Source: Eledone cirrhosa
Taxonomy: Eukaryota
Assembly (NCBI GenBank): GCA_964016885.1
Contig: OZ024741.1
Coordinates: 289,478,001 to 289,542,000 of the forward strand
DNA: 64,000 nt
Reading direction: 5' to 3'
Below, one piece after another: positions 53,501-56,002 of this stretch. Position 1 is the stretch's first letter. Every line of letters starts with the position of its first letter. The notes under the pieces were generated by a model. It was not told where the DNA came from, searched no databases, and was given only the letters and a program-made list of their open reading frames with translations. The position numbers and the translations under genes were made by a program.

Positions 53501-54141
53501 TTTCATTCTCGTTAGAAATCATCAGGACTACATATCCAGTGCTTTTATCGAGAATGACACAGCTAGAGACTTATAGAATACTTAGCTGTGTACAGGAACT
53601 GGTTTGAAAGAGCGGTTGCCGGTCCGGCAGAAATTAGAAATTGGAATAAATGCTCTGAAATAGCGATATATATGTGAATATAGACATAGAATATTCGAAA
53701 ATATTCTGTATGTTTATAATAAACATTTTGAAGACCTAATCGCTATAGAATAGAATACGTCACGTATTACAATTAGATTCTCGATAAAAGCAAGGGAAGT
53801 AATCTACGCGTTTCATTCTCGTTAGAAATCATCAGGACTACATATCCAGTGCTTTTATCGAGAATGACACAGCTAGAGACTTATAGAATACTTAGCTGTG
53901 TACAGGAACTGGTTTGAAAGAGCGGTTGCCGGTCCGGCAGAAATTAGAAATTGGAATAAATGCTCTGAAATAGCGATATATATGTGAATATAGACATAGA
54001 ATATTCGAAAATATTCTGTATGTTTATAATAAACATTTTGAAGACCTAATCGCTATAGAATAGAATACGTCACGTATTACAATTAGATTCTCGATAAAAG
54101 CAAGGGAAGTAATCTACGCGTTTCATTCTCGTTAGAAATCA
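50537..54141 (-). repeat. 310-bp hammerhead-containing tandem array, left arm (~11.6 units; ribozyme sense on minus strand); candidate non-LTR retrozyme
   Basis: Unit starts TTGGAATAAA at 50541, 50851, ... 53951 (exact 310 period); 11 complete hammerheads plus one truncated at the junction. Confidence 0.95.
50699..50741 (-). ncRNA. Minimal type-I hammerhead ribozyme (first of 11, repeated every 310 bp)
   Basis: Minus strand GTAGTC-CTGATGA-T-TTCT aacg AGAA-T-GAAA-CGCG-TA-GATTAC; predicted cleavage between 50705 and 50704. Confidence 0.88.
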
Positions 54142-56002
54142 ATTCACATATATATCGCTATTTCAGAGCATTTATTCCAATTTCTAATTTCTGCCGGACC
54201 GGCAACCGCTCTTTCAAACCAGTTCCTGTACACAGCTAAGTATTCTATAAGTCTCTAGCTGTGTCATTCTCGATAAAAGCACTGGATATGTAGTCCTGAT
54301 GATTTCTAACGAGAATGAAACGCGTAGATTACTTCCCTTGCTTTTATCGAGAATCTAATTGTAATACGTGACGTATTCTATTCTATAGCGATTAGGTCTT
54401 CAAAATGTTTATTATAAACATACAGAATATTTTCGAATATTCTATGTCTATATTCACATATATATCGCTATTTCAGAGCATTTATTCCAATTTCTAATTT
54501 CTGCCGGACCGGCAACCGCTCTTTCAAACCAGTTCCTGTACACAGCTAAGTATTCTATAAGTCTCTAGCTGTGTCATTCTCGATAAAAGCACTGGATATG
54601 TAGTCCTGATGATTTCTAACGAGAATGAAACGCGTAGATTACTTCCCTTGCTTTTATCGAGAATCTAATTGTAATACGTGACGTATTCTATTCTATAGCG
54701 ATTAGGTCTTCAAAATGTTTATTATAAACATACAGAATATTTTCGAATATTCTATGTCTATATTCACATATATATCGCTATTTCAGAGCATTTATTCCAA
54801 TTTCTAATTTCTGCCGGACCGGCAACCGCTCTTTCAAACCAGTTCCTGTACACAGCTAAGTATTCTATAAGTCTCTAGCTGTGTCATTCTCGATATAAGC
54901 ACTGGATATGTAGTCCTGATGATTTCTAACGAGAATGAAACGCGTAGATTACTTCCCTTGCTTTTATCGAGAATCTAATTGTAATACGTGACGTATTCTA
55001 TTCTATAGCGATTAGGTCTTCAAAATGTTTATTATAAACATACAGAATATTTTCGAATATTCTATGTCTATATTCACATATATATCGCTATTTCAGAGCA
55101 TTTATTCCAATTTCTAATTTCTGCCGGACCGGCAACCGCTCTTTCAAACCAGTTCCTGTACACAGCTAAGTATTCTATAAGTCTCTAGCTGTGTCATTCT
55201 CGATAAAAGCACTGGATATGTAGTCCTGATGATTTCTAACGAGAATGAAACGCGTAGATTACTTCCCTTGCTTTTATCGAGAATCTAATTGTAATACGTG
55301 ACGTATTCTATTCTATAGCGATTAGGTCTTCAAAATGTTTATTATAAACATACAGAATATTTTCGAATATTCTATGTCTATATTCACATATATATCGCTA
55401 TTTCAGAGCATTTATTCCAATTTCTAATTTCTGCCGGACCGGCAACCGCTCTTTCAAACCAGTTCCTGTACACAGCTAAGTATTCTATAAGTCTCTAGCT
55501 GTGTCATTCTCGATAAAAGCACTGGATATGTAGTCCTGATGATTTCTAACGAGAATGAAACGCGTAGATTACTTCCCTTGCTTTTATCGAGAATCTAATT
55601 GTAATACGTGACGTATTCTATTCTATAGCGATTAGGTCTTCAAAATGTTTATTATAAACATACAGAATATTTTCGAATATTCTATGTCTATATTCACATA
55701 TATATCGCTATTTCAGAGCATTTATTCCAATTTCTAATTTCTGCCGGACCGGCAACCGCTCTTTCAAACCAGTTCCTGTACACAGCTAAGTATTCTATAA
55801 GTCTCTAGCTGTGTCATTCTCGATAAAAGCACTGGATATGTAGTCCTGATGATTTCTAACGAGAATGAAACGCGTAGATTACTTCCCTTGCTTTTATCGA
55901 GAATCTAATTGTAATACGTGACGTATTCTATTCTATAGCGATTAGGTCTTCAAAATGTTTATTATAAACATACAGAATATTTTCGAATATTCTATGTCTA
56001 TA

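Follow-up and report, generated by a model that had tools for sequence, protein, structure and literature searches.

Head-to-head insertion of a young 310-bp hammerhead repeat family at (TA)n targets in Eledone cirrhosa, with fixed outer ends resembling those of PLEs

Introduction

Metazoan non-LTR retrozymes are low-GC tandem repeats with a unit of 150-450 bp and a type I hammerhead in each unit, present in thousands of copies and free of ORFs (PMC7229834; 10.64898/2026.07.22.740005). A circRNA template and a PLE helper have been proposed for them (PMC7229834; 10.64898/2026.07.22.740005), and the origin of their arrays is debated, with rolling reverse transcription of circles on one side (PMC7229834) and local unequal crossover on the other (10.64898/2026.07.22.740005). 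EN+ PLEs (Penelope/Poseidon, Neptune and Naiad) carry an inverted, 5′-truncated copy at their 5′ end and a 30-40 bp tail at one end, are biased towards (TA)n targets, and contain a hammerhead with a palindromic helix III as well as two RT start sites that bound the tail (PMC8557442, PMC3846280, PMC11167929). A purified PLE enzyme, predicted to form a dimer, cuts and extends both strands and has two such start sites; in vitro the start site is the same on either strand and homology is not needed (PMC11167929). The origin of the tandem and inverted structures and tails of PLEs has been called undefined (PMC8557442). Retrozymes, the inverted copy and tail of PLEs, the two start sites and the extension of both strands are matters of published record.

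Here we describe a 310-bp repeat that resembles both groups in these features. Its inserts differ from published metazoan retrozymes in being nearly all head-to-head, with fixed paired ends and a single haplotype each, and from EN+ PLEs in that the repeat is non-coding (with a putative helper), both arms are multi-turn arrays, and one end of type A is strictly paired with one of type B. The non-autonomous elements of Chlamys, for example MRC1, differ in turn: they are found in green algae, mostly lack hammerheads, have a helper-like 3′ end and are arranged head-to-tail (PMC8557442). The word "inverted" is absent from the main text of PMC7229834 and appears once, in a reference, in 10.64898/2026.07.22.740005; head-to-head retrozyme arrays, strict A-B pairing and per-insert haplotypes were not found in the literature searched, mostly sources other than subscription papers and supplements.

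Results

A strand flip within a tandem array

The window, the 64,000-nt stretch of DNA analysed here (positions 289478001-289542000 of contig C2), belongs to a 3.0 Gb genome rich in microsatellites. It contains a tandem array of a 310-bp unit (GC 34-35%), numbered from u1 = 54142, in which the strand flips at 54141/54142, with GTTAGAAATCA to the left and ATTCACATA to the right. The orientation switch had been noticed in a sequence-only reading and is confirmed as a blunt join without overlap or inserted letters. The features of the locus are:

50196-50520, no strand: neighbour on the left, an older insert from a different family that targets (TA)n, also head-to-head, with its inner junction near 50280
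50521-50536, no strand: left (TA)n target remnant, 16 bp
50537-54141, minus strand: arm B (left), 3,605 bp, 11.63 tandem units, 5′ end u159, 3′ end u43 (site B)
50537-50574, minus strand: "tail" u6-u43 between putative priming sites A and B, at the left end only
54141-54142, no strand: head-to-head junction, blunt, both arms 5′-truncated
54142-56006, plus strand: arm A (right), 1,865 bp, 6.02 tandem units, 5′ end u1, 3′ end u5 (site A)
54266-54354, plus strand: predicted type I hammerhead motif in the first arm-A unit, from descriptor search and pairing
56007-56037, no strand: right (TA)n target remnant, 31 bp
56039-56415, no strand: neighbour on the right, a short insert from a different family, head-to-head and extended by ~35 nt on one side, delimited by eye

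As first read, the arms meet centrally by their 5′ ends, and at its 3′ end each passes into (TA)n (50521-50536 and 56007-56037). The positions given for the inner ends also hold: arm B is cut inside the CTGATGA box (u155-161) at u159, and arm A spans about six units, from u1 to u5. Single-unit changes number three in arm B and one in arm A, or 4 in 5,470 bp for both arms together.

Both neighbours resemble truncated PLE inserts with this geometry, and the array landed in the TA run that separates them. The left TA run is provided by the fixed end of the left neighbour, GGCAGCG(AT)n, which occurs 23 times in the genome; inner junctions of this family differ between copies, and no empty allele turned up among the 12 inspected of the 23 genome places carrying this end. 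An extension like that of the right neighbour also follows the foldback at 5747-6864. None of the sequencing-run contigs listed spans the junction at 54141/54142, and contigs of other sequencing runs have loose ends at 50280/50281. An assembly gap (N run) lies within a repeat at ~40660-40960 of the window.

Two candidate observations were set aside. The match of the flanking GCGATATATAT to the unit was rejected as a template jump, being the fixed end of another family, and a self-closing unit record of 340 letters (310 + 30) in contigs of runs X1, X2, X10 and X12 was dropped as evidence for a circle, since a collapsed array yields the same record and X1 and X10 also contain the flank repeat. 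Across runs X1-X20, which bear 18 organism codes, 65-100% of the unit's sampled words are present; carry-over, diet or a wide spread of the repeat may each account for this.

The head-to-head form across the family

Exact pattern searches recovered 4,245 occurrences of the ribozyme-core 30-mer in the genome and none of its reversed control, and nine of the ten arrays listed first run minus-then-plus, so the flip is not a chance event. We fetched 90 loci, all on contig C1: the first 10 arrays listed, 60 chosen by right-hand end type and 20 by left-hand end type. Other genomic arrays of the unit proved to be inverted as well, a check that had been proposed with the first reading: 83 of the 90 loci are head-to-head, five are single-armed and two untestable. 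The first 70 loci comprise 66 simple pairs, one complex locus (L041) and three single-armed loci, the last four being left out of the 66-pair counts below, while the 20 chosen by their left-hand end comprise 15 complete pairs, one head-to-head locus with its far end out of range, two single-armed and two untestable loci. Among the 10 loci not selected by an end, nine are head-to-head. TA runs lie at the outer ends examined; since one such end served to select 60 of the 70 loci and all of the 20, the opposite end is the test.

Genome-wide, exact site-A ends (defined below) number 642 and 414 for two A forms, at least 1,056 in all, and exact site-B ends at u40 number 753, which places more than 1,000 inserts in the genome; these counts, like all others here, come from one assembly in which unit numbers may be mis-assembled and variants hidden by polishing. 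The inversion is real and is the standard insertion form of this young mobile repeat family. That it is no accident of assembly is borne out by the 83 head-to-head loci. An assembly or library artefact, in which a foldback read or two mis-joined loci simulate the flip, has a negligible probability, because each of these loci has its own junction, A and B ends and matching haplotype, and foldback reads would give mirror copies, which are seen in 3 of 81 pairs.

Arms have median lengths of 3.4 and 4.6 units and a maximum of 23, and their lengths within pairs correlate (rho 0.35, p 0.001, 81 pairs), a weak hint of simultaneous synthesis. Arms of 19 to more than 30 units (6-9 kb) were seen in L144, L146, L068 and L079, which implies very processive synthesis. 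In two older sister families (L101-L130 and L151-L180, from 2,634 and 1,870 search candidates) copies are ~91% and ~85% alike, respectively, and arms are far shorter than those of the young family.

Paired outer ends at two constant sites

The outer ends fall at two places in the unit ~35 nt apart, and each insert has one of each. Site A (u3-6) lies just 5′ of the unit's ATATATAT, as does the 3′ end of arm A in the window, and site B covers u38-47, with u40 used in 38 of 66 cases. The offset between A and B is constant in 66/66 simple pairs (64 by script, two by eye). When three exact end forms were counted in the first 331 Mb of C1, giving 239 ends among the matches listed, neighbouring minus-plus ends within 12 kb were A-B in 65 of 65 cases, with no A-A and no B-B, against an A-B share of 49% expected under independent site choice. 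The 35-40 nt between the sites are present at one end of the insert only, and this one-sided stretch corresponds to the PLE "tail". Older non-coding sister families, which match the unit over u244-u87 at ~76%, have the same two end positions.

A possible microhomology of the right end with the unit's own CATATATAT had been suggested from the sequence. This is borne out in part: end A always lies just 5′ of CATATATAT, but a sister family with ATGTATACAT at that place ends at the homologous position, and homology at end B amounts to no more than 0-2 nt. The first reading was right about the flip and missed both the two distinct fixed outer sites, one each per insert, and the shared haplotype described below.

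Scattered inner ends joined by microhomology

Inner ends behave differently from outer ends. Seven of the 66 junctions are blunt, 42 overlap by 1-17 nt and 17 contain an insert of 1-17 nt; overlaps of at least 3 nt occur in 23 of the 49 insert-free junctions, compared with 6.6% at random. The CTGATGA box contains the inner end of 4 of 132 arms (3.0 expected), and a length close to whole units is seen in 4 of 66 A arms (2.8 expected). Since the inner ends lie at scattered positions and microhomology joins them, the cut in the box and the "six units" of the window are chance, and the meaning earlier attached to a breakpoint in the ribozyme core and to six whole units falls away. Nor are inner ends enriched at the predicted cleavage site (3/132, 4.7 expected), and of the 81 arms of each kind 73 are longer than one unit; RT thus crossed this site freely. 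Over 81 pairs, arm-B inner ends are uniform and arm-A inner ends lean to u160-310 (Rayleigh p 0.0006). At L041 (2343-2773) the junction is duplicated, with the u250/u214 join present twice, suggesting slippage while joining.

A foldback or self-priming route, in which a single cDNA snaps back and is copied to give the inverted arm, has been put forward for PLE head-to-head repeats (PMC3846280) and was also considered in the sequence-only reading. Some junctions do lie at hairpins of the unit (L067, L089), and mirror symmetry, the tail excepted, is found in three of 81 pairs (0.6 expected, p 0.02), so that a few inserts may be foldbacks. Neither arm copies the other in the remainder, which rejects this route for most inserts: arm A extends further 5′ than arm B in 39 pairs and less far in 39, the positions of their inner ends bear no relation to each other (8 within 10 nt, 5.9 expected; 81 pairs), and in the window arm B is twice as long as arm A, with inner ends at u159 and u1. 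Foldback is thus largely refuted for this 310-bp family and very unlikely as its general route.

In L1 twin priming, two cDNAs from both target strands meet 5′-to-5′ with microhomology; the second of the primers anneals internally, at a place that varies, and the two arms represent successive stretches of a single linear RNA. Such priming by an APE-endonuclease LINE, with the second primer annealed internally where the first cDNA stops, would give the same head-to-head geometry and junction microhomology, and intact APE-RT ORFs occur in the fetched loci. We regard it as highly improbable here, given that the 5′ end of an arm lies near the priming site of the other in 5 and 9 of 66 pairs (6.6 expected by chance), that both sites are fixed, that both arms copy the same sequence and that poly(A) is absent. 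The one-sided tail and (TA)n target are, moreover, marks of PLEs (PMC8557442).

One haplotype per insert

Variants were compared between arms in 65 loci including the window, with L039 and L089 dropped, and at all 40 testable loci those fixed in one arm are fixed in the other as well. Among the 55 loci in which each arm measures at least 330 nt there are 21 haplotypes, 16 of them seen once, with a random-match probability of 0.17. Single-unit changes amount to 96 in 209,967 nt (0.046%), two of which are seen twice (once per arm) and none twice within an arm. The shared arm haplotype and the lack of spread of variants within arms favour one circular monomer template over unequal crossover, which, like conversion, should leave variants at intermediate frequency.

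Expansion in place of a monomer or short insert by unequal crossover, with later inversion or homogenisation, is the satellite model put forward for retrozyme arrays (10.64898/2026.07.22.740005), and would leave few marks if it took place very soon after insertion. Set against the 96 singletons, the absence of any change seen twice within an arm makes this a remote prospect; nor does the model explain why each locus has a single inversion between fixed outer ends A and B. The earlier argument that unequal crossover cannot produce the flip is upheld.

The same PLE dual priming could instead have used an uncleaved linear or multimeric circular transcript, or two transcripts of one array. The arms would then share a haplotype as well, and in vitro cleavage is unnecessary, unprocessed RNA being the main substrate (PMC11167929). 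A long source-array transcript should, however, carry its single-unit changes into both arms in register, whereas one or two changes are mirrored and 96 are not. The two are in L058 and L087, where one change is present a single time per arm; counted from the outer ends, it is in register in L058 (the same change at the same template position, as a multimer would give) and not in L087. Neither is explained by a monomer circle, and they call for a multimer template or later conversion. New haplotypes fixed in all units (16/21 seen once) nevertheless require a one-unit bottleneck, and the ribozyme is spared by fixed variants, which renders a multimer template unlikely overall. A one-unit bottleneck before each insertion, such as a monomer circle read repeatedly would provide, fits best.

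A predicted hammerhead in each unit

The hammerhead motif has an outer stem of 16 bp (54266-81 paired with 54339-54), a stem I of GTAGTC/GATTAC, CTGATGA at 54296-54302, GAAA at 54317-20, a helix III formed by the palindromic ACGCGT, and a 4-bp stem II above a U.U pair, which is also found at the base of helix II in axolotl HHR_Amex2. All core residues and three helices of the descriptor are present, and cleavage is predicted after GTA, at 54326 (u185). The cleavage-to-cleavage monomer folds better than shuffled sequences (z -3.9; 1 of 100 shuffles as good). An Rfam search of the unit returned no hammerhead at the gathering threshold or at E up to 10; since Rfam does not recognise the motif, the call rests on the descriptor, on related families and on the pattern of variants. 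In related families from the fetched loci the helices are kept with different sequences, one family having a U3-A8 core. This sister retrozyme (L084:4650-5554, L080:9619-9985), with the core TTGATAA (U3-A8 for C3-G8), is also head-to-head. Ten of the 24 substitutions fixed in an insert are in the ribozyme region and none of these is disruptive, compared with 9 of 17 sporadic substitutions, from a list compiled by hand (Fisher p 0.009). Recurrent fixed changes are at N7, in loop II, or turn U.U into A-U.

The array contains no stop-to-stop frame of 90 aa or more and is without LTRs, both ends passing directly into (TA)n. On these sequence features we file the 310-bp unit as a non-LTR retrozyme, with putative self-cleavage and circRNA.

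PLE enzymes and short foldbacks

ORFs coding for RT plus GIY-YIG at the C terminus are frequent in the fetched loci, with coding pieces in 43 of 150. L037 matches RVT_1, with a GIY-YIG match below the cut-off, and L036 and L085 match RT/HTH/GIY-YIG clusters at 0.95-0.98. The foldback family of 37625-38383 lies just downstream of an RT + GIY-YIG ORF in four loci and is the 3′ end of such an element; the family of 24747-25028 lies likewise just downstream of one in a single locus. At least some of the short foldbacks in the window are therefore truncated PLE inserts of the same geometry, in agreement with the earlier claim that the array shares the geometry of these foldbacks. A search for an autonomous PLE with the unit's 3′ region, using three related sequences and 60 loci, found non-coding relatives only.

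Short foldbacks beside microsatellites lie at 796-872, 5747-6864, 7459-7587, 14107-14702, 14772-14899, 24747-25028, 25179-25302, 33529-33631, 37625-38383, 46176-46410, 48384-48629, 48683-49037, 49306-49660 and 57354-57952 of the window. Several of them have a one-sided extension and hammerhead-like cores, and about ten families show this geometry. Near-identical, apparently intact 1,040-aa APE-RT-PHD LINE ORFs are also present in L078 (1505-4624) and L041 (6301-9420).

Discussion

The insert works like a PLE insert, and its repeat is assigned to the retrozymes by sequence features. We interpret it as the product of a PLE enzyme carrying out dual target-primed, rolling-circle reverse transcription on a single retrozyme circle, the two cDNAs being joined by microhomology, and put the probability of this reading at about 0.78. 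Against it speak the five one-armed loci among 90, the search for an autonomous partner that turned up non-coding relatives only, the missing Rfam match to the hammerhead, the changes found once per arm in L058 and L087, the three mirror-symmetric pairs, the uneven spread of arm-A inner ends, and the in vitro findings that start sites are alike on both strands and that homology is dispensable (PMC11167929). The original proposal, that a single insertion took its primers from the two strands of a (TA)n target, has held up, while foldback, offered beside it, was not confirmed as a general route (A further in 39/81 pairs, B in 39/81, mirror-symmetric in 3).

Geometry, end pairing, junction microhomology and haplotype sharing are direct observations; the circle, its cleavage, the dimer, simultaneity and which enzymes act as helper and in joining are inferred. 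Transcripts of an array would self-cleave after GUA to give 310-nt circles. A PLE protein, probably as a dimer, would bind a circle and nick both strands of a (TA)n tract, a target that reads identically on either strand. One DNA end would prime at site A (u3-6) and the other at site B (u38-47), giving the 35-40 nt tail at one end that is seen in the inserts. Each RT would then circle the template for a variable number of turns and halt at a near-random position. Finally, the cDNA ends would be joined through microhomology, bluntly or with a small insert, as the junctions record, by a presumed joining enzyme, and the arms filled in.

A more specific version has, in our estimate, a slightly better than even chance: that the inserts record the action of a PLE dimer which grips a single circular ribozyme RNA at two sites 35 nt apart, with two simultaneous rolling-circle reverse transcriptions from both (TA)n strands. 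If so, the PLE tail and the inverted copy would be outcomes of a single event, and a single step would produce retrozyme "satellites" at their full length, the RNA circle being what selection acts on.

Inverted arrays of this kind should not be dismissed as assembly errors. For the in vitro PLE system already available, the strict pairing of one A end with one B end serves as a prediction. Earlier arguments for a PLE helper of retrozymes drew on co-occurrence and phylogeny, and the 310-bp inserts bear mechanistic marks of PLEs. With its more than 1,000 inserts, this young family makes three questions testable: how the tails and the tandem or inverted structures of PLEs form, how retrozyme arrays arise, and whether a PLE acts as their helper.
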